From positions 1,521,104 through 1,585,103 of the forward strand of contig JAHBVC010000001.1 in the NCBI GenBank assembly GCA_019637755.1: a DNA stretch of 64,000 bases, read 5' to 3'. This DNA comes from Anaerolineales bacterium. Lineage in GTDB: Bacteria; Chloroflexota; Anaerolineae; Anaerolineales; UBA11579. The position numbers were made by a program, and so were the translations under genes. The notes beneath the pieces were generated by a model. That model saw only the letters and a list, made by a program, of their open reading frames with translations. It had not been told where the DNA came from and did no database searches. Below are positions 26,015-46,916 of this stretch, one piece after another; the stretch's first letter is position 1; every line of letters begins with the position of its first letter.

Positions 26015-26154
26015 GCGGGCCTCGCATAGATGCCCAGCCAATAGTCTTTCTCGCTTTGCAGATCCAGCAGCAACCTTGCATCCCCCAGCCCGCGCTTGAC
26101 CGGCGCAGGCAGCAGGCGCGCCGCCGCCGCGAACCCCAGCAATGGGTTAGCCAT
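26011..26154 (-). CDS. candidate 47-aa small protein bridging two GT genes
   Basis: Below the ORF-track size cut-off. MANPLLGFAAAARLLPAPVKRGLGDARLLLDLQSEKDYWLGIYARPA. The start overlaps the upstream stop (ATGGCTAA) and the stop overlaps the downstream start (ATGA). GC-rich third positions. Confidence 0.35.
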   Translation of the reverse strand: MANPLLGFAAAARLLPAPVKRGLGDARLLLDLQSEKDYWLGIYARPA

Positions 26155-27169
26155 GCAAGGCCTCGATGTATGCATCCACCATCTGGTCCAGGCTCAGGTG
26201 TGCTTCGGCATGAGCGCGAGCCGCCTGGCGCATCGCGGCCTGTTGCGCGGCGGGCGCGGTCAGCAGCTCGTTGGCCGCGGCGGCCAGGCCAGCCGCATCA
26301 GGCGCATCCAGCTTCCACGGGTCGCCGCCGTAGGGCACCAGGCGGCCGGCTGCGGCTGGCACCAGCTCATTCAGCGCGCCGGTGTCGTACGCTAGCACCG
26401 GCAAGCCGCAGGCCAGGGCCTCGATGACTGAGTTCGGGCAGGCGGCGTTGATGTCGGTGGAGTACAGCAAGTGGGCACTGCGATTGAGCGCGGGTACCTG
26501 CTCATTCGCCACCACTCCAAGCCAGGTGATGGGCCGCTGCGTGCGCGCCGCGTAATGGGCGCGCTGCATTTCGCTTACCAGGCCGGCCACGGCGAGCTCT
26601 ACATCCAGCCTGTATTCGTGCTCCAGCCTGCGCGCCAACTGGACCGCGCTCTCGAGCCCGGATTCGTAGCCGCCGCGCAGGCTGCCTTCCACCACCAGGA
26701 TGCGAAAGTAGCTGCCCGGCGGAGTTTCAGGCCCGTGCGGGGTGAACGTGTTGAGGTCAACCCCGTTGTGGATGATGCGCGCGTCAGGCCCGGGCCCAAA
26801 TTGGCGTTGCCACCACGCGTGCACAAAGTGGCTTTGGTAGATGATGCCAGTGGCCAGGCGGCTGCGGATGTGGGCCAGCACGCGGTTGCCGCGCTCGGCC
26901 CGCAGCCAGTGTAGCGGGCCAGTGGGCAGGCGACGGTGCAGCCAATTGATACCATCCAGCCGTTGGATCACGGGGAGGTTGCGTTGGCGCGCCTGGCGCA
27001 GTGTATTGAAATGCCGCGTGCCGCCGATGACCAGCAAGCTGTCAATGCTCTCGTCTGGGGCGAAGGTATGTTGAATCTGGCGCTGCTCAAGGCCACGGAT
27101 GAACTTGGCCTGGAAGGAAACCATGCCGCCGATGCCAGACACTTTAGGGATGATGCCGATGCGTTTCAC
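26147..27169 (-). CDS. family 4 (GT-B) glycosyltransferase
   Basis: MKRIGIIPKVSGIGGMVSF... and ACPNSVIEALACGLPVLAYDTG. Confidence 0.85.
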   Translation of the reverse strand: MKRIGIIPKVSGIGGMVSFQAKFIRGLEQRQIQHTFAPDESIDSLLVIGGTRHFNTLRQARQRNLPVIQRLDGINWLHRRLPTGPLHWLRAERGNRVLAHIRSRLATGIIYQSHFVHAWWQRQFGPGPDARIIHNGVDLNTFTPHGPETPPGSYFRILVVEGSLRGGYESGLESAVQLARRLEHEYRLDVELAVAGLVSEMQRAHYAARTQRPITWLGVVANEQVPALNRSAHLLYSTDINAACPNSVIEALACGLPVLAYDTGALNELVPAAAGRLVPYGGDPWKLDAPDAAGLAAAANELLTAPAAQQAAMRQAARAHAEAHLSLDQMVDAYIEALHG

Positions 27170-27174
27170 GCGCT

Positions 27175-27972
27175 CTACTCTACTTGCAAATCACGGAATT
27201 CGACCCAGCTGCCGGGCTGGGGCGTTTCTACGCCGTACTGCAGGCGGCCACTCGGCAACCAGGCGGCATACTGATTATCCAGCCATAGCAGTACGCTGAG
27301 CGGCGGCTGCGGTGCAATTGGGCTATGCAAGACTAAGTTTCCGTCCACTTTGAACTCCACAAAGCCTGCCTGCCAAAGCAGCTCGTACGTGTGCCATGCG
27401 GTCACATCGCTTGTCAGCGCCACGGCGGCCTGGCGCACCCATTGGCTGGCGGCACGACGCAGGCTGCGGGCGCCCGCTGGCCAGGCCAAGAGCGGTGCGG
27501 CCAGGAGGCCAGGGGTGAGTAGCAGGCTGGGGGTGCGCGGCGAACGGTACACGGCGGCTTGGCCGCCGTTACCGGGCAGGGCATCATCCAGGCTGAGGTG
27601 ATTGCGCCCTGAGGCAAACATAAACCAGGCGGCGTTGGGCAATGCGGGCAACTGCACGCCGCCGCCCTGGCCTACGCCAAACCCGAAGGGATCGTTCCAC
27701 ACCCCGAAGCCCCAGGTGCCCGGGAGCTGAGGGTGCGAGGCGCGTGCCTGAAGGCGCAGCTGAAACGGCGCATGCCGCGGGAAGCGGTGGCGCGCTACGT
27801 GAGCGTACTCATCGCATTGCGCCAGTTGGTAGCCGCGCCCGGCGCCGAGTGAAAAGCGCCACACCGCGCCGTCTTGCACGGCGCGCCCGGCGCCGGCCGT
27901 GCGCAGCGTCATCTCTGGCAGCATTACGCTATTATACGGTTCGTGTCGCTGCGCCTGTAGGAGTTGGTTCAA
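27175..27972 (-). CDS. hypothetical protein, possible beta-jelly-roll (concanavalin A-like/GH16-like) fold
   Basis: 265-aa ORF with a TTG start (uncertain). WGFGVWNDPFG, AWFMFAS and WHTYELLW..FVEFKVDG resemble lectin/glucanase-fold strands. First gene of the GT operon. Confidence 0.5.
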   Translation of the reverse strand: MNQLLQAQRHEPYNSVMLPEMTLRTAGAGRAVQDGAVWRFSLGAGRGYQLAQCDEYAHVARHRFPRHAPFQLRLQARASHPQLPGTWGFGVWNDPFGFGVGQGGGVQLPALPNAAWFMFASGRNHLSLDDALPGNGGQAAVYRSPRTPSLLLTPGLLAAPLLAWPAGARSLRRAASQWVRQAAVALTSDVTAWHTYELLWQAGFVEFKVDGNLVLHSPIAPQPPLSVLLWLDNQYAAWLPSGRLQYGVETPQPGSWVEFRDLQVE

Positions 27973-28033
27973 AATGTTATAATCGTTTGGTTACAACGTT
28001 TTAGCAGCACATCACCCCCTGAAAGAGCATTGA

Positions 28034-28660
28034 ATGGAAATCACCTGGTACGGAAACTCTTGCTTTCGCATTACGGAGCGCAGTATGCCCACCGTAGTGA
28101 CTGACCCCTATGATCATGCCAGTGCAGGGTTTAAGGCGCTGAAACTCAAGGCGGATATCGTTTCGGTGAGCCACGATGCCCCGGGGCATAACTTTGTTAA
28201 AGGCGCCAAGGGGGCTTCGTGGGAAATCCGTGGGGCGGGGGAGTATGAGATCGGCGGCGTATTTGTTACTGGGGTTGCCATCAAAGAAGGCAAAGACACG
28301 AACCTGGTGTTCACCTTTGATTACGGCGGTGTAACCGTTTGCCACCTGGGCGATATGCGCAGCGTGCCCAGCCGCGCCCAGGTGGAAGCGTTGGGCAGCG
28401 TGCACGTCTTGCTGGTGCCGGTGGGCGGCGGGAATGCACTCTCGGCGGCCAAGGCAGCTGAGGTGATCGCCATGATCGAACCGGGCATCGTCGTGCCAAT
28501 GCACTACAAGGTGGATGGTAGTAACCTGAAGCTCAACCCGCTTAAGCAGTTTCTGCAAGAGATGGGCTTGAGCAAAGAGAAGGCCGAGCCTTCACTGAAG
28601 ATCACCTCTTCGAGCGTGCCCAGCGAAACCAAAGTGGTTGTGCTGGATGTGGCCAGCTAA
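28034..28660 (+). CDS. MBL-fold metal-dependent hydrolase (UPF0173-like)
   Basis: MEITWYGNSCFRITE...VTDPYD...VSHDAPGHN. Confidence 0.85.
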   Translation: MEITWYGNSCFRITERSMPTVVTDPYDHASAGFKALKLKADIVSVSHDAPGHNFVKGAKGASWEIRGAGEYEIGGVFVTGVAIKEGKDTNLVFTFDYGGVTVCHLGDMRSVPSRAQVEALGSVHVLLVPVGGGNALSAAKAAEVIAMIEPGIVVPMHYKVDGSNLKLNPLKQFLQEMGLSKEKAEPSLKITSSSVPSETKVVVLDVAS

Positions 28661-28661
28661 C

Positions 28662-28967
28662 ATGTCTGGCATTAAATTATTGATGACCTGGGATATTCAG
28701 CCCGGGCGTGAAGAAGATTACTTTGAGTTTCACATCCGCAAGTTTGTGCCCGCGCTTGAGGGCTTGGGCGTGGCGCTGAGCGAAGCCTGGCTCACCGTCT
28801 ACGGTGAGCAGCCCCGCCTGCTGGCCGAGGCGGTCATCCCCAGCATGGATAATGCCCGCCGTGTGCTGGGCAGCAGTGCCTGGCAAGATTTGGGCGTGCA
28901 GATGCAAGAGCTGGTGGATAACTTTGATTACAAACTGGTGCCCGCGCGCGGCGGCTTCCAGCTTTAA
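28662..28967 (+). CDS. hypothetical small protein (101 aa)
   Basis: MSGIKLLMTWDIQPGREEDYFEFHIRKFVPALE.... The ATG lies 1 nt after the upstream stop. No motif recognised. Confidence 0.6.
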   Translation: MSGIKLLMTWDIQPGREEDYFEFHIRKFVPALEGLGVALSEAWLTVYGEQPRLLAEAVIPSMDNARRVLGSSAWQDLGVQMQELVDNFDYKLVPARGGFQL

Positions 28968-28994
28968 GCCTTGTGGCCAAGCGGCCACCCTTCC

Positions 28995-30062
28995 ATGAAG
29001 AAAAGCAAGCTTGCTACACCTCTGCTACGCTGGTACCACGCCCGCAAGCGCAGCTTGCCCTGGCGCGACCAGCCGCAGCCGTATGCGGTGTGGGTGGCTG
29101 AGATCATGGCCCAGCAAACACGCCTGGAGACGATGCTGCCGTACTATCAACGCTGGATGCAGCAGTTTCCCAGCGTGGCGGCGTTGGCGGCGGCCAGTGA
29201 GCAGCAAGTGCTGAGTGCCTGGGAGGGCCTGGGGTATTACAGCCGCGCCCGCAATCTGCACAAGGCCGCCCGCCAGCTGCGCGCCGCCAACGGCGGGCAA
29301 CTGCCGCGGCGTGCCGCGGAGTTGCGCCAACTGCCCGGTATCGGCGCGTATACTGCAGGCGCCATCGCCTCGATGGCGTTTGGGGAGGATGTGCCCGCGG
29401 TGGATGGCAATGCCATCCGCGTCCTTTCACGCGTGTTTGATGTAAGTGTGCCAGTGCACTCGGCCGCCGGCCAGCAGCACCTGTGGGCGCTGGCTGCCGA
29501 GCACCTGCCGCGCGGCCGGGCCGCTGAGTACAACCAGGCCCTGATGGAACTGGGGGCTACGCTGTGCAGCCCGCGCCCCAAGTGTGATACCTGCCCGCTG
29601 GCGGCGCACTGCCTGGCCAAGCAGCGCAGCACGCAACTGCTGCGCCCGGTAAAGCGGCAGGCCGCGGCGCTGCCTGTGCGTTTTGCGGCCGCGGCGGTGG
29701 TGTGGCAAGCCGGCAAAGTGTTGCTCTTGCAGCGCCCCGCGCGTGGGTTGCTGGCAGGGATGTGGGAGTTTCCCTCGGTAGCGCTGGAAGAGCAAGCAAA
29801 AGCGAAATCATATCTGCGCACCGGCCTGAAGGCGGAGCTTGGTTCCGCACTAAAAATTGGCACACTGCGCGGCAATTTTGAGCACACCTATAGCCATTTT
29901 CACGCTCAACTGAGCGTATATGATTGCCCCGTGCATGAGGAAACCCCTCTTCGTATTCAACGCCCGCACAAGTGGCTGGCGCCGCGCAGCCTGGGCCGCG
30001 TGCCGATGGGCAAGTTAGACCGCGGCGTGGCTTTGAGCTTGCTGGAGCGCAAGGATGGCTAG
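28995..30062 (+). CDS. mutY: A/G-specific adenine DNA glycosylase
   Basis: LLRWYHARKRSLPWR...PYAVWVAEIMAQQTR...GLGYYSRARNL; Fe-S loop CSPRPKCDTCPLAAHC; NUDIX-like C-terminal domain. Confidence 0.9.
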   Translation: MKKSKLATPLLRWYHARKRSLPWRDQPQPYAVWVAEIMAQQTRLETMLPYYQRWMQQFPSVAALAAASEQQVLSAWEGLGYYSRARNLHKAARQLRAANGGQLPRRAAELRQLPGIGAYTAGAIASMAFGEDVPAVDGNAIRVLSRVFDVSVPVHSAAGQQHLWALAAEHLPRGRAAEYNQALMELGATLCSPRPKCDTCPLAAHCLAKQRSTQLLRPVKRQAAALPVRFAAAAVVWQAGKVLLLQRPARGLLAGMWEFPSVALEEQAKAKSYLRTGLKAELGSALKIGTLRGNFEHTYSHFHAQLSVYDCPVHEETPLRIQRPHKWLAPRSLGRVPMGKLDRGVALSLLERKDG

Positions 30063-30372
30063 CTTTACTCGGCGCATCGAAGACTTTGTGTGCCAGCAAT
30101 GTGGGCGCGCCGTCAGCGGGGATGGGTACACCAACCATTGCCCCGCCTGCCTGTGGAGCCAGCATGTCGATGTGGCGCCCGGTGACCGGGCGGCGGGCTG
30201 CGGTGGCATGATGCAGCCGGTGGAAGTGGAGAGCCGCTCCCGTGGCTACCGCATCCTGCATCGCTGTGTTGTGTGTGGTGCGGAAAAGTGGAACCAGACG
30301 GCCCCAGGGGATGATTTTGAACACCTGTTAGCCGCAATGCGAGCCAGCGCCAACCGCAAGCTGGGGCTTTGA
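30055..30372 (+). CDS. RNHCP domain-containing zinc-ribbon protein
   Basis: CQQCGRAVSGDGYTNHCPACLWSQHVD ... CGGMM ... HRCVVCG. The start overlaps the mutY stop by 8 nt (ATGGCTAG). Confidence 0.8.
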   Translation: MASFTRRIEDFVCQQCGRAVSGDGYTNHCPACLWSQHVDVAPGDRAAGCGGMMQPVEVESRSRGYRILHRCVVCGAEKWNQTAPGDDFEHLLAAMRASANRKLGL

Positions 30373-30920
30373 TGTTTGTAGAGGGTGAACCGCAGACCTT
30401 ACTGTCTGCCGGCGAGAAGAGATGGCGCGCCATTTTGGCAAACAGAGGCATCCAACCTTGGCCTGACCTTCGATTGCGTTTTGTTGTTGGCGCATGGAAG
30501 CGCAGGGGACATTTCTTTGATTTGGATAATCTAGTGAGCCCTGTGCTTGATGCCATTGGTAGCAAGCTGTCTGAGCGCGAGTCAATTTGGGCTACTGTTG
30601 AATTGGGAGACAAGCCAGGAGTTGAGATCACGAATGGGTCCCCTCCGCCTTCGCCCATAGGCGGCTTGCGAGTAGTTCTAAAAAATCCACCCCTTCGTTC
30701 AATTCGCACTAGTAAGCCGTTGTTAGAGCTTGTGGAAGCAAACTTGTTCGGCGAGCCAAGCCAGCCCTGTGGTTGTGAAATCCGAATCGGCATGAATGCT
30801 TCTGGCATCGCCTTTGGTTTTGAAGGCCCGATCAAGCCAACCATTGATGCGCTCTGGCCCTTGTTGGGAGGAACGTTTAAGAGTCCTGCGGACCATCGCG
30901 TGCGGGACTTGAGGTTATAA
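30372..30920 (+). CDS. hypothetical protein with RusA-like motif(s), low-GC
   Basis: The ATG overlaps the RNHCP stop (TGATG). FVEGEPQ...LRLRFVVGAWKRRGHFFDLDNLVSPVLDAIG resembles the RusA core (R-x-DLDNL-x-K-x-x-x-DAL). The second half repeats a weaker version, GFEGPIKPTIDALWPLLGG. G+C is about 50-55% in two hand-counted 100-nt samples. Confidence 0.55.
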   Translation: MFVEGEPQTLLSAGEKRWRAILANRGIQPWPDLRLRFVVGAWKRRGHFFDLDNLVSPVLDAIGSKLSERESIWATVELGDKPGVEITNGSPPPSPIGGLRVVLKNPPLRSIRTSKPLLELVEANLFGEPSQPCGCEIRIGMNASGIAFGFEGPIKPTIDALWPLLGGTFKSPADHRVRDLRL

Positions 30921-30979
30921 GACAAACTCAAGTCAGTGGCATTCAGGTTGCACTTTGGCTCTTAGATACTGAGGTGGGA

Positions 30980-30985
30980 TAGAAT
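30980..30985 (+). promoter_or_regulatory. -10 TAGAAT, 8 nt upstream of ATG 30994 (leaderless candidate); lies within the imperfect palindrome TAGAATTTCTA
   Basis: ggaTAGAATttctacaaATG. Confidence 0.45.
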
Positions 30986-30993
30986 TTCTACAA

Positions 30994-32001
30994 ATGAAAC
31001 GCGTTTTCAATACCCTCGGCATTCTTGGTTTGGCGGTGTTGGGGGTGGTGACTGTGTTGGTGTTGCAGAACTGGGTGGCGCGTGGTTTTGAGCTACCGGC
31101 TCAATTTTTTACATTCACTACGATCTTCCTCGGAATCTTTATTGAAGCAGCCCCTTTTTTGTTGCTCGGCACGCTGGCCTCTGGGGTGGTTGAAGTTTTC
31201 TTCAAGAAGGAAACCCTGCAACGGCTGATGCCGCGCAATCGCTTTCTGGGTGCACTGGCTGGCGGCTTGCTGGGTTTTGTGTTCCCGGTGTGCGAATGCG
31301 GTGTGGTGCCACTGACCCGGCGCTTATTTCGTAAGGGCATGGCGCCGGCGATGGGCGTGGCGTTTCTGCTGGCTTCGCCAGTGCTCAACCCGATCGTGCT
31401 GGCCAGTACCTATGCAGCCTACGGCTGGGGGCCGGTATTGTGGCTGCGCCTCGGCCTGAGCTTGACGATCGCGGTGGCTACCGGCTTGATCTTTGCGGTC
31501 GAGGAGCAGCCGCTGCAGCTATTGCGGCCCGCCAGTATCGGGCCGCTGCAGGGCGCGGCGTGGGCGGCGCCGGTGATTGCCCCGTCGCTGGCGGTGCGCT
31601 GGCGGGAGGCGCTGGGCATTGCCGGCGAAGAATTCTTCGAGATGGGGCGTTATCTGATCATCGGCGCCATGTTGGCGGCGGCGCTGCAAACCGTGGTGCC
31701 GCAAGCCACCCTGCTGGCGTTAGGCAGTGGGCCGCTGCTCTCGGTGCTGGTGATGATCGCCCTGGCGGTGCTGCTCTCGATCTGCTCCACCGTGGATGCA
31801 TTTGTTTCGCTGGCTTTCGTCGGCACCTTTACCTCTGGCTCGATCCTTGCTTTTCTTGTCTTCGGCCCCATGGTGGACATCAAAAGCGTATTGCTGTACT
31901 TGCAGGTCTTTCGCCGGCGCACGGTAGGCTACATGGTGATCTTGCCATTGCTAATGATCATTCTGGCCGCGGTCTTTATCAACCTGAATGTTGGGATTTG
32001 A
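30994..32001 (+). CDS. permease (PF03773/UPF0718-type, paired with a TIGR03943 protein)
   Basis: Polytopic. Has the conserved FPVCECGVVPLTRRL motif. Confidence 0.85.
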   Translation: MKRVFNTLGILGLAVLGVVTVLVLQNWVARGFELPAQFFTFTTIFLGIFIEAAPFLLLGTLASGVVEVFFKKETLQRLMPRNRFLGALAGGLLGFVFPVCECGVVPLTRRLFRKGMAPAMGVAFLLASPVLNPIVLASTYAAYGWGPVLWLRLGLSLTIAVATGLIFAVEEQPLQLLRPASIGPLQGAAWAAPVIAPSLAVRWREALGIAGEEFFEMGRYLIIGAMLAAALQTVVPQATLLALGSGPLLSVLVMIALAVLLSICSTVDAFVSLAFVGTFTSGSILAFLVFGPMVDIKSVLLYLQVFRRRTVGYMVILPLLMIILAAVFINLNVGI

Positions 32002-32003
32002 AA

Positions 32004-32741
32004 ATGAGCGACTGGCAATACAAACGTGCTCACAGCATGATCTTGTTCGGCCTGGGTGTGTACTTGCTCTACAAAGTAGTATCCGGCACGCTCTACTTTT
32101 ACATCAACGCCCGTTTCACTTGGCTGGTGGTGCTGGGCGGGGTAGGCTTGCTGCTGCTGGGCCTGGTCGCCTGGCCGCGTGGCAGCACCGCCGCAGCTAG
32201 TCACTCCCACGCCCACGAGCACACCCCGCGCGGCACACGCTGGGCGCTGTTTGTGCTAGGCGCCCCCCTATTGCTGGGCTTTCTGGTGCCGGCACGCCCC
32301 TTGGATGGCAGCGCCCTGGATACGCGCGGTTTGACCACGCGGGCGTTGATGAGTGTGGGCGGCCAAAACACAATTCAGCTTGACCAACCCTCAGACCAGC
32401 GCAGTGTGCTGGATTGGGTGCGCGCCTTCAACTATGCCAGCGACCCGCAAACCTATGTGGGTGAACAAGCCGATGTTGTGGGTTTTGTGTATCAGGATGA
32501 GCGTTTGCCCGCCGGGCAATTTTTGGTGGGGCGTTTTGCGGTGAGTTGTTGTGTGGCGGATGCGTTCGCAGTGGGCGTGATCGTGCAAAGTGACGATGCC
32601 GCTCAGTGGGCCGCTAACCAATGGGTGCATGTGGCTGGCACGGTCGCAGTCGGCAGCCTGGAAGGCGTAGCCATACCACTGATTGAAGCCACCAGCATCA
32701 AAGCCGTTCCCATTCCGCCACAACCCTATTTGTTCCCATGA
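32004..32741 (+). CDS. TIGR03943/DUF1980-family membrane protein with a His-rich loop
   Basis: MSDWQYKRAHSMILFGLGVYLLYK.... His-rich segment SHSHAHEHTP. C-terminal FAVSCCVADAF. The longer ORF from 31440 was rejected because it overlaps the permease. Confidence 0.8.
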   Translation: MSDWQYKRAHSMILFGLGVYLLYKVVSGTLYFYINARFTWLVVLGGVGLLLLGLVAWPRGSTAAASHSHAHEHTPRGTRWALFVLGAPLLLGFLVPARPLDGSALDTRGLTTRALMSVGGQNTIQLDQPSDQRSVLDWVRAFNYASDPQTYVGEQADVVGFVYQDERLPAGQFLVGRFAVSCCVADAFAVGVIVQSDDAAQWAANQWVHVAGTVAVGSLEGVAIPLIEATSIKAVPIPPQPYLFP

Positions 32742-34093
32742 AATCTTGGCGCCCGTTTGAACGTGCGGTAGCTTTCAGCGCCCTGCTGTTGGTGGGCGCG
32801 ATCGCGCTTGTCTTGTGGCGCGGCGATCACGTCGGGGCGCGCGTGCTACGCAGCAGCCCGGCGCCGGGTAGCCAGGTGGCGGCGCGTGCCCCGGTGGTGA
32901 TCGAGTTTGCCCAGGCAATGGATACCGCCAGCGTGGAAAGTGGCTTTTCCATCCAGCCCGCCACGCCCGGCGAATTTATCTGGGAGGGGGATACGCTTCG
33001 CTTCATTCCCCGCACCCCCTGGCAGATCGGCGCCGAGTACCAGGTGCAATTGGCGGCCGGCGTGCGCGATCAGCGCGGCCAGCGCCTCTTGCGCCCAGTG
33101 GAGTTGGCTTTCTCAGTACGCACACCGGGTGTGGCTTTCCTGCGCCTGGCCGATTCGGGTTATACGCTGTGGGCTGCCAGTGCGCTGGATGCCGCCGCGC
33201 GCCAACTCTCCCCTGGGGATGGTGTGTTTGATTTCACCGTCACCCCAGATGGAGAGCAATTGATCTTCTCTGTGGTTAACGATCAGGCGGGGATCGATCT
33301 GTGGATCGTGGGGCGCGGCGGCGGAGACGCGCGCCGCTTGTTGGACTGTGGCGCTGACCGTTGCTTTGCCCCCGACGTGGCACCCAATGACCAAATAGCC
33401 TACAACCGCGTGTTGGCGCCGCTTTCCCCGGCGGAGCCCTATGGGCCGCCGCGCATCTGGTTGCTCAATTTGCGCTCGGGGGAAAATTTGCGCTTGCACG
33501 CCGATACCCAGAAGATCGGCTATGGCCCGCACTGGTCACCGGATGGGCGCTGGCTGGCTTACTACGATGGGGTGGCAGGACGCATAGTGATCCTCAATAG
33601 TTCCAGCGGTGAGGAGCTGGCGTTGCCCTCACAGGCCGGGGAGGTGGGCAGTTGGGCGCCGGAGGCCGAGTACATGCTCTTTGCGGATATGCGCCGCGCG
33701 GGCGAGCAGGTGCGCTCCCAGATCTTTCGTGCCAGCCTGGCCACACAGGATATTCTGCCGTTCTTTGATCCGCAGCCCGAGGATGCCGAATTCAGCGGCC
33801 CAGTGGTCTCTCCGGATGGGCAGTGGGTGGCGATGAAGATGCGCGCTCAGAACCTGACCGCCGAACAACTCTGGGTGCTGCCACCGGATGGCAGCTTTGC
33901 AATGGTGGCGGTTGAAGAAGCCGGCTATCTATATAGCCGTTACCAATGGGGCAGTGATTCGCAGGCGTTGTTGTACCACCGCCTGCAACTGGGCCGCGCC
34001 GATAGCCAGCCGAGTGTGTGGCTGTGGGAGCGCGCCACCAGCAGCCAGCGGCTGCTGGTGACTGAGGCCAGCCAGCCACTCTGGCTGCCCTGA
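32738..34093 (+). CDS. membrane-anchored protein with an Ig-like (SbsA-type) domain and a TolB-like beta-propeller
   Basis: N-terminal TM helix. SPAPGSQVAARAPVVIEFAQAMDTASVESGFSIQP. Repeated PD40-like segments (SPDGRWLAY, SPDGQWVAM). The start overlaps the upstream stop (ATGA). Confidence 0.7.
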   Translation: MKSWRPFERAVAFSALLLVGAIALVLWRGDHVGARVLRSSPAPGSQVAARAPVVIEFAQAMDTASVESGFSIQPATPGEFIWEGDTLRFIPRTPWQIGAEYQVQLAAGVRDQRGQRLLRPVELAFSVRTPGVAFLRLADSGYTLWAASALDAAARQLSPGDGVFDFTVTPDGEQLIFSVVNDQAGIDLWIVGRGGGDARRLLDCGADRCFAPDVAPNDQIAYNRVLAPLSPAEPYGPPRIWLLNLRSGENLRLHADTQKIGYGPHWSPDGRWLAYYDGVAGRIVILNSSSGEELALPSQAGEVGSWAPEAEYMLFADMRRAGEQVRSQIFRASLATQDILPFFDPQPEDAEFSGPVVSPDGQWVAMKMRAQNLTAEQLWVLPPDGSFAMVAVEEAGYLYSRYQWGSDSQALLYHRLQLGRADSQPSVWLWERATSSQRLLVTEASQPLWLP

Positions 34094-34096
34094 GCG

Positions 34097-34102
34097 TATA
34101 AT
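34097..34102 (+). promoter_or_regulatory. -10 TATAAT, 7 nt upstream of the zur ATG (leaderless candidate)
   Basis: gcgTATAATcattgcaATG. Confidence 0.45.
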
Positions 34103-34109
34103 CATTGCA

Positions 34110-34565
34110 ATGAGCCGTGCCCATATCAGTAGCGAAGCAGAGATCAAGCAGCGCACCAGCGGTTGGCTGGCGCGGCTGGCCGAATTGGGCTACCGCATCA
34201 CCGGTTCGCGCCGTGCCGTGGTGGATGTGCTGGCAGAAGCCGGTACCTCGCTCTCGCCGGCCGAGATTTACGAGCACGGGCGCGTCTTGCACAAGCAACT
34301 CGGCCTGGTGACGGTTTACCGCACGCTCGAGAAGCTGGAAGAGCTTGGCCTAGTGCAGCGCGTGCACCGCCCGGATGGGTGCCACGCCTACATCCCTGCC
34401 CTGCATGGCCACGAACACTTGCTGCTGTGCCAGCAATGCGGCCGCGTAGAGTATTTCCGCGGTGATGACCTCTCAGAGCTCAGTCGCCGGCTGGAAGGCG
34501 AAAGCGGCTTCACCATTCAGGATCACTGGCTGCAATTTTTTGGGTTGTGCGCCCAATGCCAATAA
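34110..34565 (+). CDS. zur: Fur-family metalloregulator, probably Zur
   Basis: RITGSRRAVVDVL...LVTVYRTLEKLEELGLV..HEHLLLCQQCG...GLCAQC (Fur fold with CxxC pairs). Adjacent to znuCB-like genes. Confidence 0.8.
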   Translation: MSRAHISSEAEIKQRTSGWLARLAELGYRITGSRRAVVDVLAEAGTSLSPAEIYEHGRVLHKQLGLVTVYRTLEKLEELGLVQRVHRPDGCHAYIPALHGHEHLLLCQQCGRVEYFRGDDLSELSRRLEGESGFTIQDHWLQFFGLCAQCQ

Positions 34566-34583
34566 CCCCGCCTGCGGGTATAA

Positions 34584-34600
34584 TTGAAAATCACTTTCAA
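34584..34600. promoter_or_regulatory. candidate Zur box TTGAAAATCACTTTCAA, abutting a TATAAT (34579..34584)
   Basis: Inverted repeat TTGAAA-N5-TTTCAA. Close to the actinobacterial-type Zur consensus TGAAAATGATTTTCA. Lies 28 nt upstream of znuC. Confidence 0.6.
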
Positions 34601-34627
34601 TAGACGCGCTAGCGTCTGGCAGGCGGC

Positions 34628-35461
34628 ATGCAACCGAATTCCCCATTAACTCACCATCACTCCCCAGGCGTCGCAGCGGTAGCGCTGGATAAAGTCAGCG
34701 TGGCCTATGGGCGCAATCTGGCGCTGCAAGACTTTACGCTCACTGTGGAGCCTGGGTTGCGCGTGGCGATCGTTGGCCCCAATGGCGCCGGTAAATCCAC
34801 CTTCTTTAACTTGGTCAGCGGCCTCATAGCGCCCACGCAGGGCCAGGTGCGCGTACATGGCCACGCACCTGGCGAGCACCTGTGCCTGGCCTACGTGCCG
34901 CAGGCCAACCAGGTAGACCTGAGCTTCCCGGTGAGCGTGTGGGACGTGGCGATGATGGGGCGGGTAGGCCAACTCGGCTTGCTGCGCCGCCCCAAAGCCG
35001 CCGATCGCGAGCTGGTGCGCAGTAGCTTGCAGCGCGTCGGCATGCTGGATCTGGCGCGCCGCCAGATCGGTGAGCTTTCCGGGGGGCAACGCCAGCGCCT
35101 GTTCATCGCCCGCGCGCTCACCCAACGGGCAGACCTGTTATTGCTGGACGAACCTTTTGCCGGGCTGGACCTGCCGGCACAAGAGCAGATTCTGGCAATC
35201 TTGAATGACCTCAAGCAGCACGGCGTCACCGTACTGTTTGCTACCCATGATCTAGAGCTGGCTGGCCAGCAGTTCGATAGCGTGCTGCTGATCAACCGGC
35301 GCTGCGTGGCCTATGGCTCCGCCAGCGCGGTGCTCACCCCTGCGAACCTGGCCGCCGCGTATGGAGGCCAGGTGCAGTGGATCGATACCCGCGAGGGGCG
35401 CGTGCTGGTGGAGATCGGTGGCGGGCACCCTCACCACGCAGGGGAGGGGCAGCATGACTGA
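34628..35461 (+). CDS. znuC: metal (Zn/Mn) ABC transporter ATP-binding protein
   Basis: GPNGAGKST, LSGGQRQR, LLLDEP. Confidence 0.85.
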   Translation: MQPNSPLTHHHSPGVAAVALDKVSVAYGRNLALQDFTLTVEPGLRVAIVGPNGAGKSTFFNLVSGLIAPTQGQVRVHGHAPGEHLCLAYVPQANQVDLSFPVSVWDVAMMGRVGQLGLLRRPKAADRELVRSSLQRVGMLDLARRQIGELSGGQRQRLFIARALTQRADLLLLDEPFAGLDLPAQEQILAILNDLKQHGVTVLFATHDLELAGQQFDSVLLINRRCVAYGSASAVLTPANLAAAYGGQVQWIDTREGRVLVEIGGGHPHHAGEGQHD

Positions 35462-36317
35462 GTGGCTGTTGGAGCCCCTCGGCTTCGCCTTCATGCAGCG
35501 CGGAGTGTTGGCGGCGGTGCTGGTGGGGGTAGTGTGCGCCGTAGTGGGCAGCTATATGATCCTGCGCGGCATGGCTTTTTTGGGGGAGGCGCTGGGCCAT
35601 GCCATCTTGCCCGGTCTGGCCGCCGGCTACCTGCTCTCCAATGGCGATCGCGCGGTCACCTTCGTGTGGGCGCTGGCCACCGCGATCGTAGCTTCGGTCA
35701 CGATGGGTGCGCTCAGCCGTAGCACCAAGCTGCGCCAGGATACCGCGATTGGCATCGTCTTCGCGGGCATGTTTGCCCTGGGCATCGCATTGATCTCAAG
35801 TATGCGCAGCTACGCCGTCGATCTGACCCATATGCTGTTTGGCAACATCCTCGGTGTGGCCAATCAAGATATGTGGCTGATTGTGGGTATGGGTGTGGCG
35901 GTACTGCTCGCCGTGGCGCTCTTTTACAAAGAATTGACCGTGATCGCCTTTGATCCCGTGCTGGCAGTAACCTTGCGCCTGCCGGTGCGCGCCCTGGATA
36001 TTTTGCTGCATGTGATGGTGGCGATCGCGATCGTGATTTCGCTGCAGACGGTGGGCGTGGCGCTGGTGGTGGCGATGTTGCTCACCCCGGCGGCCACCGC
36101 CTTCCTGCTCACCAAGCGCTTGAAGCGCATGATGGCACTGGCGGCCGGCTTGGCGGCGATCAGCGGCGTGGTGGGGCTGTATGCTTCGTATTATTTGAAC
36201 ATTGCCTCCGGCGCCGCCATCGTGCTTGTATCAACATTGCTATTTGTGGCTGTGTATGCGGCCCGCGCGCTACGCGCAGCCTTGCCCTTGCGCCAAACAA
36301 AAAGCCCCGCTAGCTAG
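35454..36317 (+). CDS. znuB: metal ABC transporter permease
   Basis: MTEWLLEPLGFAFMQRG...GEALGHAILPG, ABC-3 family. The start overlaps the znuC stop. The longer ORF from 35313 was rejected. Confidence 0.85.
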   Translation: MTEWLLEPLGFAFMQRGVLAAVLVGVVCAVVGSYMILRGMAFLGEALGHAILPGLAAGYLLSNGDRAVTFVWALATAIVASVTMGALSRSTKLRQDTAIGIVFAGMFALGIALISSMRSYAVDLTHMLFGNILGVANQDMWLIVGMGVAVLLAVALFYKELTVIAFDPVLAVTLRLPVRALDILLHVMVAIAIVISLQTVGVALVVAMLLTPAATAFLLTKRLKRMMALAAGLAAISGVVGLYASYYLNIASGAAIVLVSTLLFVAVYAARALRAALPLRQTKSPAS

Positions 36318-43090: not shown

Positions 43091-44346
43091 AAAACCTACT
43101 GAAGATAATTGCCGCCGTGGTTGTGCTGGGCCAACTGCTATTGGCTTGCGCCCCGGCACCTGTAACGGCACAGGCTACCGCGCCCGCTTCCGTGTGGCAG
43201 GGCGCAGTGCCAGCCGCCATTAACATCGGCGCCACGATCCCGCTCACTGGCGCCTTCGCCGCCGGGGGTGCCCAGGTGCTGATCGGCTACCAATATGCGG
43301 TCGATGCGATCAACCAGGCAGGCGGCATCTATGTCGCCGAATACGACGCCCACCTTCCGATCCGGCTGATCGTCAAGGATGATGGATCGAAGCCGGAGAA
43401 CGTCGTTAGCAATTTGGAGGCGCTCTACGCCGCCGACAATGTCGCCGTGTATCTGGGCGGGTTTGGTAGCAGCTTGCATTCCGCTGCCGCGGCGATTGCA
43501 GAAAAGAATCAAGTGCCCTATCTCGGTATCGCCTTCGCTCAATATGATATTCACCAGCAGGGCTATCAGTATTTGTTCTCGCCATTCTGGAAATCTCCAC
43601 AAATGGCTACCGATGTCTTTGAAATGCTCAATGGCCTTTTGCCTGAGGGCCAACGCCCCACCAAAGTTGCCATCATCCATGAGCAAACCGACTGGGGCAT
43701 TGAGCTGGGCGGCATGTGGGCCGAAGCCGCACCGACCTATGGATACGAGATCGTGGCCACCGAAAGCTATGCAGTCGGCACGGCAGATTTCACCGATATC
43801 ATTTTGCGCGTGCAACAAGCCGGTGCTAATGCGGTGCTCTCGCTACCCGTACCCCCGGATGGGTTTACATTGTTCCGCCAGATGGCAGAGCTGGGCTATA
43901 CGCCCGAATTTGCCCTGGTGGTGCGCGCCCCCGACAATACGCCGGTGTGGATCGAGAATTTGGGGCGCGCCGGTGATTATGTTGTGCTGGCTCCGGGATG
44001 GCACAGTTCGATGAACTATGCGGGTGTGGCGGCGATCAACGCACGCTATCAGGCGGAATATGGCAGCCCGGCGCTGGCGCAAGTGGGCAACGCCTATGCA
44101 GTCATCCAGATCATGGCGGATGCGATCGAGCGTGCCGGCGCACTGGACCGTCAGGCCATCCGTGATGCCATCGCCGCCACGGATCTCGATACCGTCACGG
44201 GCCATATCACTTTCTTCGCCGATGGCACCAGCAGCGTCGCCAACCCCTTAGTGCAGATCGTCAATGGCACACAGCAGGTGATCTGGCCGGCTGAGTTTTC
44301 CACGGCAGATTTTGTCTTCCCGGCTCCGCCGTTTGACCAGCGTTGA
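43087..44346 (+). CDS. ABC transporter substrate-binding lipoprotein (Leu/Ile/Val-binding family)
   Basis: MKNLLKIIAAVVVLGQLLLAC lipobox. Type I periplasmic binding fold. The start overlaps the livM stop (ATGA). Confidence 0.85.
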   Translation: MKNLLKIIAAVVVLGQLLLACAPAPVTAQATAPASVWQGAVPAAINIGATIPLTGAFAAGGAQVLIGYQYAVDAINQAGGIYVAEYDAHLPIRLIVKDDGSKPENVVSNLEALYAADNVAVYLGGFGSSLHSAAAAIAEKNQVPYLGIAFAQYDIHQQGYQYLFSPFWKSPQMATDVFEMLNGLLPEGQRPTKVAIIHEQTDWGIELGGMWAEAAPTYGYEIVATESYAVGTADFTDIILRVQQAGANAVLSLPVPPDGFTLFRQMAELGYTPEFALVVRAPDNTPVWIENLGRAGDYVVLAPGWHSSMNYAGVAAINARYQAEYGSPALAQVGNAYAVIQIMADAIERAGALDRQAIRDAIAATDLDTVTGHITFFADGTSSVANPLVQIVNGTQQVIWPAEFSTADFVFPAPPFDQR

Positions 44347-44374
44347 GCGCTCAACCCTAAAAGTTGCTTCCTAA

Positions 44375-44404
44375 GACGGGCTGCTTAGCAGCCCGTCTTT
44401 TTTT
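44375..44404 (+). terminator. rho-independent terminator
   Basis: GACGGGCTGC-tta-GCAGCCCGTC followed by TTTTTTT. Confidence 0.85.
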
Positions 44405-44599
44405 GTCTCCATCGCTATCGTGACAAAAAACACATGCACATGAGTAATTTTTCTGGCGGAAACTTTAGAGGAAAATTAGTGTTACTATCTTTAGGTATAT
44501 GTGCAACGCATGCAATTCTGTGCAGACGAAGCCGTATATGCAAGGGGGCGCCTGGGGTCTTTTACCCGGCGCGTTTTTGCAAGCGAGGGCCGTGTGACG

Positions 44600-45562
44600 A
44601 TGCAAGATTATGAGCGCATGGCTCTGCTGGCACAAATTGCAGAGCTGTATTACATGCAAAACATGAGCCAAGCTGAAATCGCGCACCGTTTTGGGTTCTC
44701 TCGCTCCAAGGTTTCGCGCCTGATCACCGAATCGCGTGAAACTGGCCTGGTCCAAATCCGCATCAATCATCCCGTGCGGCGCGACTCCATTCTCGAAGAG
44801 CGCCTGGCCAAAACTTTCGGCCTGCACAGCGCCCACGTCCTGCAAACCAGCCTGTATACCGAAAGCCAGAGCCTGCGCACCCTGGGCCGCCTGGGCGCCT
44901 ACTACCTCAGCGAGCATTTGGCGCCCAACAGCACCCTGGGCATCTCCTGGGGCACGGCCATTTTTGAAGTCGCCCAGGCGCTGCGCAAACGCAACTACCC
45001 CGAATTACGCATCGTGCAGATCATCGGCTCCATCGGTTACGGTGACCCTGCGGTGGATGGGCCAGAGCTGGCGCGCAACATCGCCGCGGTCTTCTCAGGC
45101 AAGTATTTCACCCTCAACGCTCCAGTGATCGTACAAGACCAGCATGCACGGGATACCTTGCTCAATGAGCGCCATATTCAAGAAGTGCTGGCGCTCGGCC
45201 TGCGCGCGGATTACTACCTGGTGGGCATCGGCTCCACCACACCCGGCTATTCTGCCCTGGTGCGCGCCGGCAGCCTGCCCGCCGCCGAGATGGATGCGAT
45301 CATTCAGGCTACAGGCGCCGTGGGCGATATCTGCGCCCGGGTGTATGACCAGAACGGGAATTTCTCCGGCTTCGATTTCAACCAGCGCGTCGTGGGCATC
45401 TCGTTGCAGGAGCTGCGCGATGCCAAGGGGACGGTGGTGGGCATCGCCGGTGGCGAAGCCAAGGCACCGGCCATCCTTGGCGCCTTGCGCGGCCGCCTGA
45501 TCGACGTGCTTATTACGGACGACAAGGCGGCGGAGAAGGTGCTGGAGTTGCACTCCAACTAG
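44600..45562 (+). CDS. SorC/DeoR-type sugar-binding transcriptional regulator
   Basis: LLAQIAELYYMQNMSQAEIAHRFGFSRSKVSRLITESRETGLVQIRI plus a sugar-phosphate-binding C-terminal domain. Start at MQDYE (44600). Confidence 0.85.
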   Translation: MQDYERMALLAQIAELYYMQNMSQAEIAHRFGFSRSKVSRLITESRETGLVQIRINHPVRRDSILEERLAKTFGLHSAHVLQTSLYTESQSLRTLGRLGAYYLSEHLAPNSTLGISWGTAIFEVAQALRKRNYPELRIVQIIGSIGYGDPAVDGPELARNIAAVFSGKYFTLNAPVIVQDQHARDTLLNERHIQEVLALGLRADYYLVGIGSTTPGYSALVRAGSLPAAEMDAIIQATGAVGDICARVYDQNGNFSGFDFNQRVVGISLQELRDAKGTVVGIAGGEAKAPAILGALRGRLIDVLITDDKAAEKVLELHSN

Positions 45563-45859: not shown

Positions 45860-46281
45860 TGCTGGATTTCCTTTCTGAAAATATCGCCGTTCTTGGCGTA
45901 GCCCTTTTGCTGATGTGGGGCTTGCAATTTGCCTTCACCTACATCCAGATGCGCAAATTCTACGCACGCCTCAAAGTGGTGCGCCAGGCGGGGCTGACTG
46001 CGGTGGGCAAAGGCGGCGGCCAATACCGCGGCCGCGTCTATGGAGTGCTCACCGTGAATAATGCCAAGCAGGTCATCCATGCCGAGAAAATGTCCGGCTG
46101 GTCAAACTTCTCTGGCTTGAAGCCCGTGCCCGAACTGATCGGTTTATCCCTACATGACATAGTGGATGAGACCAAGCCCTTACCGGTCTCTCAAAAACTT
46201 TCTGATGCCTTCCGCGATGCCGCGGCGTATCTGCTTGATGCTGAAAAGCAGACCCTCCCCGAAGCAGACCCCGGTAAATAA
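45859..46281 (+). CDS. gutM: GutM-like glucitol operon activator
   Basis: N-terminal TM helix, then FAFTYIQMRKFYARLKVVRQAGLTAVGKGGGQYRGRVYGVLTV, collinear with E. coli GutM. The start overlaps the ptsH stop. Confidence 0.75.
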   Translation: MLDFLSENIAVLGVALLLMWGLQFAFTYIQMRKFYARLKVVRQAGLTAVGKGGGQYRGRVYGVLTVNNAKQVIHAEKMSGWSNFSGLKPVPELIGLSLHDIVDETKPLPVSQKLSDAFRDAAAYLLDAEKQTLPEADPGK

Positions 46282-46376
46282 ATCCCAAGCACAAGTAATA
46301 GGAGGAACCCACCCAGCGATTGCCGAAATGTCTCACCTACACCCCTAATCGACTTATTAGAGGAGAGTCTCAGACT

Positions 46377-46916
46377 ATGGATGCTTTAGTACATGCAGCA
46401 GAATGGTTCATTGGTTTGTTCCAACAGGGCGGGGCTGTGTTCCTTTCATTGGTCGGCGGCATTATTCCGCTGCTGATTGTTTTGCTTACCGGTGTCAACG
46501 CCCTCGTGGCCCTGATCGGCCCCGAGAAGATTGACAAGGTGGGTGAATGGGCCGCCCGCGACGGGATTATCTACTACCCCGTGCGCTACATCTTGCTCCC
46601 CTTCCTGGCCGTGTTCTTCCTGACCAACCCTATGGCTTACACCATGGGGCGCTTCCTCCCCGAGCGCTTCAAGCCGGCGTTTTACGATGCCGCCGTGTCT
46701 TACGTTCACCCGCCGCTGGGTATCTTCCCCCACATCAATCCGGGTGAATTGTTCGTCTGGCTGGGTATCGCCGCGGGCATTGAATCGCTGGGCCTCTCCA
46801 CCGTGCCTCTGGCGCTGTGGTACCTGGTTGTCGGCCTGATCGTCATCTTCATCCGTGGCATTGTGACTGAGCGCATTACCGCCATCATGTGGGCGCGCCG
46901 CACGGCTGCGAAGTAA
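46377..46916 (+). CDS. srlA: PTS glucitol/sorbitol-family EIIC component
   Basis: MDALVHAAEWFIGLFQQGGAVF...NPMAYTMGRFLPE..FPHINPGELF, collinear with SrlA. AGAGGAGAG SD upstream. Confidence 0.9.
   Translation: MDALVHAAEWFIGLFQQGGAVFLSLVGGIIPLLIVLLTGVNALVALIGPEKIDKVGEWAARDGIIYYPVRYILLPFLAVFFLTNPMAYTMGRFLPERFKPAFYDAAVSYVHPPLGIFPHINPGELFVWLGIAAGIESLGLSTVPLALWYLVVGLIVIFIRGIVTERITAIMWARRTAAK

Follow-up and report, generated by a model that had tools for sequence, protein, structure and literature searches.

What is a small, G+C-poor gene doing directly behind mutY? The question is raised by a locus in a 64,000-nucleotide stretch of an Anaerolineales bacterium (assembly GCA_019637755.1, contig JAHBVC010000001.1, positions 1,521,104 to 1,585,103 of the forward strand; the whole stretch is called the window here), in which mutY, encoding adenine DNA glycosylase, overlaps a gene for a zinc-ribbon protein with an RNHCP domain, which in turn overlaps a third open reading frame, ORF3. 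The initial annotation took ORF3 for a tandem RusA-like protein of foreign origin, and hinted either at a repair module together with MutY or at an acquired nuclease with a possible role in defence. The reading favoured here, at a probability of roughly 0.6, is that of an accessory gene, gained by horizontal transfer and variable among strains, for a pseudo-dimer with two RusA folds and a composite site, which is possibly a defence nuclease.

The double fold is supported by structure prediction and by profile comparison. The AlphaFold2 model of a full-length, syntenic relative with 71% identity to ORF3 (P0002; alignment of 34 sequences, predicted local distance difference test (pLDDT) 92, predicted template modelling (TM) score 0.90) has the order beta-alpha-beta-alpha-beta-beta twice in succession, in residues 1-87 and 99-197; this is the order of the RusA fold, which is built of a four-stranded sheet and two helices. 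The Foldseek E values for RusA are only 2e-3 to 0.03. Against the PDB, the highest Foldseek probabilities (0.84-0.94, target TM score 0.47-0.50, about 110 columns) were those of E. coli RusA (2h8c, 2h8e, 1q8r), and RusA resolvases also headed the matches among predicted viral structures, with probability 1.0 and E values from 2e-3. When the C-terminal half was predicted alone, it kept the same secondary structure (pLDDT 92.7), and the top viral Foldseek matches were again RusA (E 0.02-0.3). Each half was also aligned by hhalign with a RusA profile of 22 sequences, comprising E. coli-type proteins and 12 diverse phage RusA genes, which replaced a narrow E. coli-type profile tried first (P 5e-5 for the N-terminal half, 0.009 for the C-terminal half). 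With the diverse profile, the N-terminal half aligned at P 2.2e-6 (probability 89%; reversed-profile control, P 0.31), with D50-L-D52-N53-L on D70-L-D72-N73-L of RusA, and the C-terminal half at P 4.8e-6 (probability 86%; reversed-profile control, P 0.11), with K155, D159 and D174 on K76, D80 and D91. The two halves compared directly with each other gave a weak match, in register (P 0.011). The internal duplication and the RusA-like tandem architecture with a single plausible active site, both proposed in the initial annotation, are thus supported by the model, by Foldseek and by hhalign alike, and the motifs on which that proposal was built are present in ORF3 (FFDLDNLVSPVLDAIG and FGFEGPIKPTIDALWPLLGG).

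The catalytic residues are divided between the repeats. In the RusA profile no variation occurs at D70, D80, D90 and D91, and very little at D72, N73 and K76. The N-terminal repeat, which carries G5-x-P7, R44 and D50-L-D52-N53, holds the equivalents of D70, D72 and N73 and no conserved K76, D80 or D91, while the C-terminal repeat, in which a PP-x-RS-x-R stretch after the first strand resembles, by eye, PPS-x-N-x3-R of RusA, holds those of K76, D80 and D91 and has no D70 or D72. The full set of D70, D72, D91 and K76, present in every RusA subunit, is complete in ORF3 only across both repeats, and probably one site is left. An intact site had initially been assigned to the N-terminal half; the D-x-D-N motif does lie there, but that site is incomplete, as the residues corresponding to K76, D80 and D91 are found in the C-terminal half. 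The polar residues conserved among 61 diverse members of the ORF3 family, whose alignment columns are on average 26% identical, are D50, D52, N53, K155, D159 and D174; D159 is invariant, and the other five are kept in at least 90%.

A possible mode of action can be drawn from the RusA dimer. In RusA, D70, D72 and D91 form the cation site, K76 contacts D72 and N73 contacts a DNA phosphate, and a hydrogen bond joins N70 to D91 of the partner subunit in the D70N dimer (PMC1636454). Because of this contact across subunits, the most likely arrangement in ORF3 would be one composite site. Covalently joined in one chain, the two repeats would amount to a pseudo-dimer with the fold of the Holliday-junction resolvase RusA and, if they pack like the RusA dimer, D50, D52 and N53 of the N-terminal repeat would face D174 of the C-terminal one, so that a single composite Mg2+ site may lie at the repeat interface, its reciprocal site being lost or degenerate. 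Such a protein would be expected to bind branched or distorted DNA and to cut one strand, instead of making the paired cuts of RusA.

The likeness to RusA (PF05866; 1Q8R, 2H8C, 2H8E; E. coli prophage DLP12) extends over the beta-alpha-beta-alpha-beta-beta fold and the two-unit arrangement, the G/P-P motif that follows strand 1, the D-L-D-N-L that opens helix 2, the K-x3-D-x-L within helix 2 and an Asp just before strand 3, and by analogy Mg2+-dependent DNA chemistry may be expected of ORF3. In RusA, however, two subunits of some 120 amino acids make up a homodimer with two symmetric sites, whereas ORF3 proteins are single chains of 198-215 amino acids with two diverged, unlike repeats. The loop at residues 15-28 of RusA is missing from the N-terminal repeat of ORF3, which as a protein falls below the Pfam threshold, and RusA belongs to lambdoid replication or lysis modules, whereas genes of the ORF3 family are found in chromosomal islands. 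These differences bear on the proposal that ORF3 is a true Holliday-junction resolvase equal to dimeric RusA, which would make paired cuts in recombinational repair, either by dimerising again or through two sites. Such a role would be in keeping with a RusA fold in both halves and with the position of one distant family member in a phage-like module among RecT, CSD, NERD and PolA genes. Each half nevertheless lacks part of the catalytic set, the N-terminal half lacks the 15-28 loop, a search of 50,697 phage records and of viral contigs, a common setting of RusA, gave no match, and most contexts are defence islands, so we regard a true resolvase as quite unlikely.

Sequence comparison places ORF3 in what appears to be a real family that is as yet unnamed and undescribed. 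It comprises 41 clusters at 90% identity that are 39-71% identical to ORF3 over the full length, and an exhaustive search, with clustering at 50% identity, brings the number of representatives to about 140; a pattern scan of genome contigs, which reaches close relatives alone, found members in two Acidimicrobiia metagenome-assembled genomes. Searches of Pfam, NCBIfam, PHROG, PADLOC and the PDB with the ORF3 sequence gave no match. Of all Pfam families, RusA alone drew weak matches from more than a single member (3 of the 61, best E 0.017), and longer, fused members gave only DUF6946, in one protein. Between ORF3 and its homologue at the related locus L009, the proportion of nonsynonymous differences (pN) is 0.18 and that of synonymous differences (pS) 0.77, which indicates purifying selection on the family; the nonsynonymous divergence (dN) is similar to that of mutY and the RNHCP gene. 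No paper and no database family was found for such single-chain RusA proteins, and the literature gave nothing on tandem RusA or on RusA in defence. Engineered fusions of RusA have reportedly been explored already.

The foreign origin of ORF3 is strongly supported. Its G+C content is 52.3%, as against 65.1% in mutY, 63.2% in the RNHCP gene, 57-65% in its neighbours generally and a mean of 61.7% over the window, and it ranks within the lowest 0.9% of 549-bp windows across the 64 kb. At third codon positions the G+C fraction (GC3) is 0.52, compared with 0.70-0.76 in the neighbours of ORF3, and the L009 homologue deviates in the same way (0.41 versus 0.72-0.82). The lower G+C content had been noted, and a foreign origin suggested, in the initial annotation; the computed values bear out the first, and the second is borne out by the outlying composition together with the lack of ORF3 in a strain whose flanking DNA is 98-99% identical. 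The sole other stretches of the window as poor in G+C (at most about 52% in windows of 549 bp) are at 44130-44889 and 45870-46419.

The strain in question is represented by locus L040, where blastn aligns the flanks of the window at 98.0% identity up to 30369 and at 99.2% from 30993, and where 41 bp take the place of the 623-bp segment with ORF3. ORF3 is likewise absent from L039 and L042, and the mutY-RNHCP pair is kept at all three loci. A sequencing run of another sludge study (X4), which also contains a contig with ORF3, has in addition a contig end that follows the L040-type junction after 30365, and alleles with and without ORF3 therefore coexist in one community. The differences from L040 are clustered around ORF3, with 24 in 29555-30369 and 28 in 30993-31742, compared with none in 29055-29554 and one in 31743-34500. 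This clustering marks the divergent patch of about 2.2 kb (3-4%) as the footprint of an import by homologous recombination. At L009 an intact ORF3 occupies the equivalent position, again with a 1-nt overlap (TAATG), and identities to the window are 77% for the RNHCP gene, 75% for mutY and 71% for ORF3; this shared position, together with the low GC3 of the L009 gene, shows that the presence/absence polymorphism is old and has been shuffled among relatives. Over 26055-34500 the comparison with L040 gives a mosaic, in which stretches with zero differences alternate with patches of 3-6% divergence such as 26055-27554 (a glycosyltransferase operon), and which indicates frequent homologous recombination in this Anaerolineales population.

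The layout of the three genes (Table 1) is as initially described. The RNHCP gene starts 8 nt inside mutY (ATG at 30055, mutY stop TAG at 30060-30062; ATGGCTAG), and the ATG of ORF3 at 30372 overlaps the RNHCP stop TGA (30370-30372) by 1 nt (TGATG). Because of this overlap directly behind the conserved mutY-RNHCP bicistron, ORF3 would probably be expressed from the host operon; a scan for promoters and terminators between the genes found nothing convincing. For mutY, the ATG at 28995 agrees with the 355-amino-acid length of relatives, the longest open reading frame beginning at a TTG at 28971, and its orthologues in L009, L039, L040 and L042 have 352-355 amino acids. MutY scores 313 bits against TIGR01084 (cut-off 286.5), with both Pfam domains found, as expected of an equivalog, and the RNHCP protein scores 101.6 bits against PF12647 (cut-off 24). 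The ATG of the following gene, for an ArsP-type permease, is at 30994, 11 nt after the end of the +1-frame remainder of ORF3.

Table 1 Features of the mutY-RNHCP-ORF3 locus, in positions of the window
Feature	Position	Strand	Basis
mutY, adenine DNA glycosylase	28995..30062	+	TIGR01084 E 2e-93; HhH-GPD and NUDIX_4 domains
Gene for RNHCP-domain zinc-ribbon protein	30055..30372	+	PF12647 E 2.4e-29
ORF3 as assembled, 182 amino acids, putative single-chain double RusA-fold protein	30372..30920	+	family, AlphaFold2 model, Foldseek
Putative N-terminal RusA-like repeat of ORF3, residues 1-92	30372..30647	+	hhalign against RusA profile
Putative C-terminal RusA-like repeat of ORF3, residues 93-182 (93-203 in the intact allele)	30648..30917	+	hhalign against RusA profile
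Frameshift site, AGG here and AGGG in intact alleles (one G short)	30912..30914	+	contig comparison of sequencing runs
Continuation of ORF3 in frame +1, VIRQTQVSGIQVALWLLDTEVG followed by stop, last beta-hairpin of the family	30914..30982	+	translation against family alignment
Segment of 623 bp, replaced by 41 bp in L040 (insertion/deletion polymorphism)	30370..30992		blastn of window against L040
Divergent patch of about 2.2 kb around ORF3, 3-4% relative to L040	29555..31742		mismatch histogram

The tight stop/start overlaps that join the three genes, both in the window and in L009, could be taken to mean that ORF3 works with MutY and the RNHCP protein as a repair module, for example by nicking or processing branched intermediates of base-excision repair, and all three genes concern DNA or encode zinc ribbons of a nucleic-acid type. 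The overlapping mutY-RNHCP pair is, however, conserved with or without ORF3 in four other Anaerolineales loci: L009 has ORF3, whereas L039, L040 (of the same species, judged by flank identity) and L042 lack it. The composition of ORF3 is foreign, and of 38 loci with homologues that were screened for neighbours only L009 has RNHCP or mutY nearby, some 30 other family loci having neither. Thus neither the proposed module nor a wider association of the family with these two genes held up, and we judge joint action in repair very unlikely. ORF3 rather looks like a passenger on a housekeeping operon than a partner of MutY, its link to mutY being apparently accidental.

The housekeeping operon itself is part of a conserved block of a metallo-beta-lactamase (MBL)-fold gene, a gene for a protein of 101 amino acids, mutY, the RNHCP gene, the ArsP-type permease gene, DUF1980, Big_5, Fur and ATP-binding cassette (ABC) genes. 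Judged by RNHCP homologues, the host is an Anaerolineales bacterium of activated sludge. The block recurs in L039 (complete genome CP075367.1; RNHCP 80% identical) and L040 (RNHCP 96%), and in L042 mutY and the RNHCP gene are followed by PCMT and ZnuA. The gene for the 101-amino-acid protein (28662-28967, plus strand), directly upstream of mutY, has no Pfam or NCBIfam match and is better conserved than any other gene of the block, with 96% identity to L009 and a dN/dS of about 0.03; at each of the five Anaerolineales loci it separates the MBL-fold gene from mutY. Throughout the Anaerolineales loci the RNHCP gene stands between mutY and a zinc-uptake or Zur-type module of ArsP-like permease, DUF1980, Fur and ZnuABC (30055-36317 in the window). 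Outside the Anaerolineales, in Tistlia and Moranbacteria loci, it is not beside mutY, and in the Moranbacteria genome a gene for a P-type cation ATPase follows it. No biology was found in the literature under the name RNHCP, and the protein, with its eight Cys/His residues, may serve in metal homeostasis and not in DNA repair.

The commonest neighbour of the ORF3 homologues among the 38 screened loci is a helix-turn-helix (HTH) protein of about 203 amino acids encoded directly downstream (L005, L006, L010, L012-L014, L017, L018, L023-L025). In L005, L006, L012-L014 and L017 the homologue-HTH pair follows a gene for an ADP-ribosylglycohydrolase fused to a PTP-SAK/Tc-R-P phosphatase, and a REase-ARP/PDDEXK_13 protein is encoded divergently on the opposite side; the latter is also found in L001-L004, where only a remnant of the fusion gene is left. 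These cassettes adjoin cyclic oligonucleotide-based antiphage signalling systems (CBASS; SMODS, SAVED, Cap2), ThiF/JAB, Nmad3 or a kinase. A reading by eye of the 203-amino-acid partner as a PD-(D/E)xK nuclease was confirmed by no tool, and only the HTH assignment is supported. In low-GC (0.33-0.38) contigs from hot springs (L030, 376-4024; L036; L038), a family member with 26-31% identity overlaps the start of two tandem genes for dynamin-like GTPases, which match LeoA/LeoBC of Eleos.

One conserved arrangement, at 2378-7241 of L012, consists of four genes, for a divergently encoded REase-ARP/PDDEXK_13 protein of 688 amino acids, a Tri1-like ADP-ribosylglycohydrolase-PTP-SAK/Tc-R-P protein of 482, the ORF3 homologue of 210 and the HTH protein of 203. 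The same four-gene cassette is present in L005, L006, L013, L014 and L017, and a CBASS operon adjoins it in L012-L014. None of the four genes is matched as a system by PADLOC models, and nothing was found in the literature for PTP-SAK or REase-ARP; the cassette is a candidate for an undescribed conflict system. About 1 kb upstream of hot-spring members, small CxxC...CxxC zinc ribbons of 70-80 amino acids are encoded together with a membrane protein (zinc ribbons at L034 359-571, L037 444-686 and L038 579-821).

Because the family elsewhere resides in defence or conflict islands, a defence-type nuclease role would be the best guess for ORF3, and of the two roles hinted at initially it is the acquired nuclease of possible defence function that fits the family contexts best. 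With CBASS, Eleos (LeoA/LeoBC) and the ADP-ribosylglycohydrolase/PTP-SAK systems, ORF3 shares the neighbourhood of its distant members, a strain-variable presence and a foreign composition. It differs from them in that its family is without a PADLOC match and in that the gene of the window stands alone behind housekeeping genes. Perhaps ORF3 is a single-chain RusA that was turned into a structure-specific nickase and serves as a mobile anti-phage or anti-plasmid effector or sensor, either on its own or with partners such as the ADP-ribosylglycohydrolase/PTP-SAK, REase-ARP or dynamin-like proteins; we put this forward only tentatively.

Alternatively, the RusA fold could have been kept without catalysis, as a DNA-structure sensor or adaptor for neighbouring defence nucleases. 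The conserved neighbours, where there are any, include predicted nucleases (REase-ARP/PDDEXK_13, NERD), and a decay of catalysis would likewise look like a complementary loss of motifs. The near-invariant D50, D52, N53, K155, D159 and D174, however, correspond to the metal-binding and catalytic residues of RusA, and neither in the window nor in L009 does the gene have a partner nuclease, which makes a non-catalytic role rather improbable.

A further question is whether the copy in the window is intact. Homologues of 198-215 amino acids share a conserved C-terminus (DLRV...GVxVALWLL), whereas the frame in the window ends at DLRL and a stop codon, 21 codons early and with the loss of the last beta-hairpin, through a frameshift. 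In otherwise near-identical contigs of runs X3 (depth 38.7) and X4 (16.3), both of the other sludge study, an extra G follows 30912, while runs X1 and X2 (depth 4-5), which are probably from the source sample, do not have it at 30912-30914. Intact ORF3 alleles thus exist; as to the truncation, either the assembly, at low coverage, has dropped a G from the run, or the gene has been inactivated in this particular strain. In the latter case ORF3 in this genome could be a decaying pseudogene remnant without present function, in line with the shortened frame and with the dispensability of the gene, since strains without it exist. Yet the sole defect is one G missing from a run of Gs, at a depth of 4-5x; the frame contains no further stops or shifts, it is intact in the near-identical contigs at 16-39x, and the family appears to be under long-term purifying selection, so that decay seems unlikely, if less so than the alternatives weighed above.

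Several points weigh against ORF3 as an acquired pseudo-dimer with a possible role in defence. The copy in the window may, as said, be a pseudogene, and none of the RNA-seq runs contains ORF3. As to the fold, ORF3 had no match to PF05866 even at E 1-10 and stays below its gathering score, the family profile matched no RusA chain among PDB sequences and only gave chance matches, and no Foldseek match reaches E 1e-3, with TM scores of just 0.3-0.58; the structure models, moreover, were made from a relative of ORF3 and not from the truncated protein of the window. As to defence, two family members lie among ordinary metabolic genes, no PADLOC-DB 2.0 model matches the three family members compared, only their neighbours (LeoA/LeoBC), and three queries found no family member in the phage collection, in plasmids or in viral contigs.

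For this genome, these observations mean that mutY does not belong to a novel module for repair and that ORF3 is a strain-variable passenger. For the family, the recurrent defence-island neighbourhood points to candidate conflict systems. RusA is a textbook homodimeric resolvase, and a natural covalent pseudo-dimer whose halves have lost complementary parts of the catalytic set would show how a symmetric enzyme with two cuts can become an asymmetric enzyme with one site; a protein of the ORF3 type would also offer a ready-made single-chain scaffold for structure-guided nucleases. If the proposed nickase role is true, ORF3 and its relatives would represent a new class of defence nuclease that is kept as a presence/absence polymorphism by recombination within a species.

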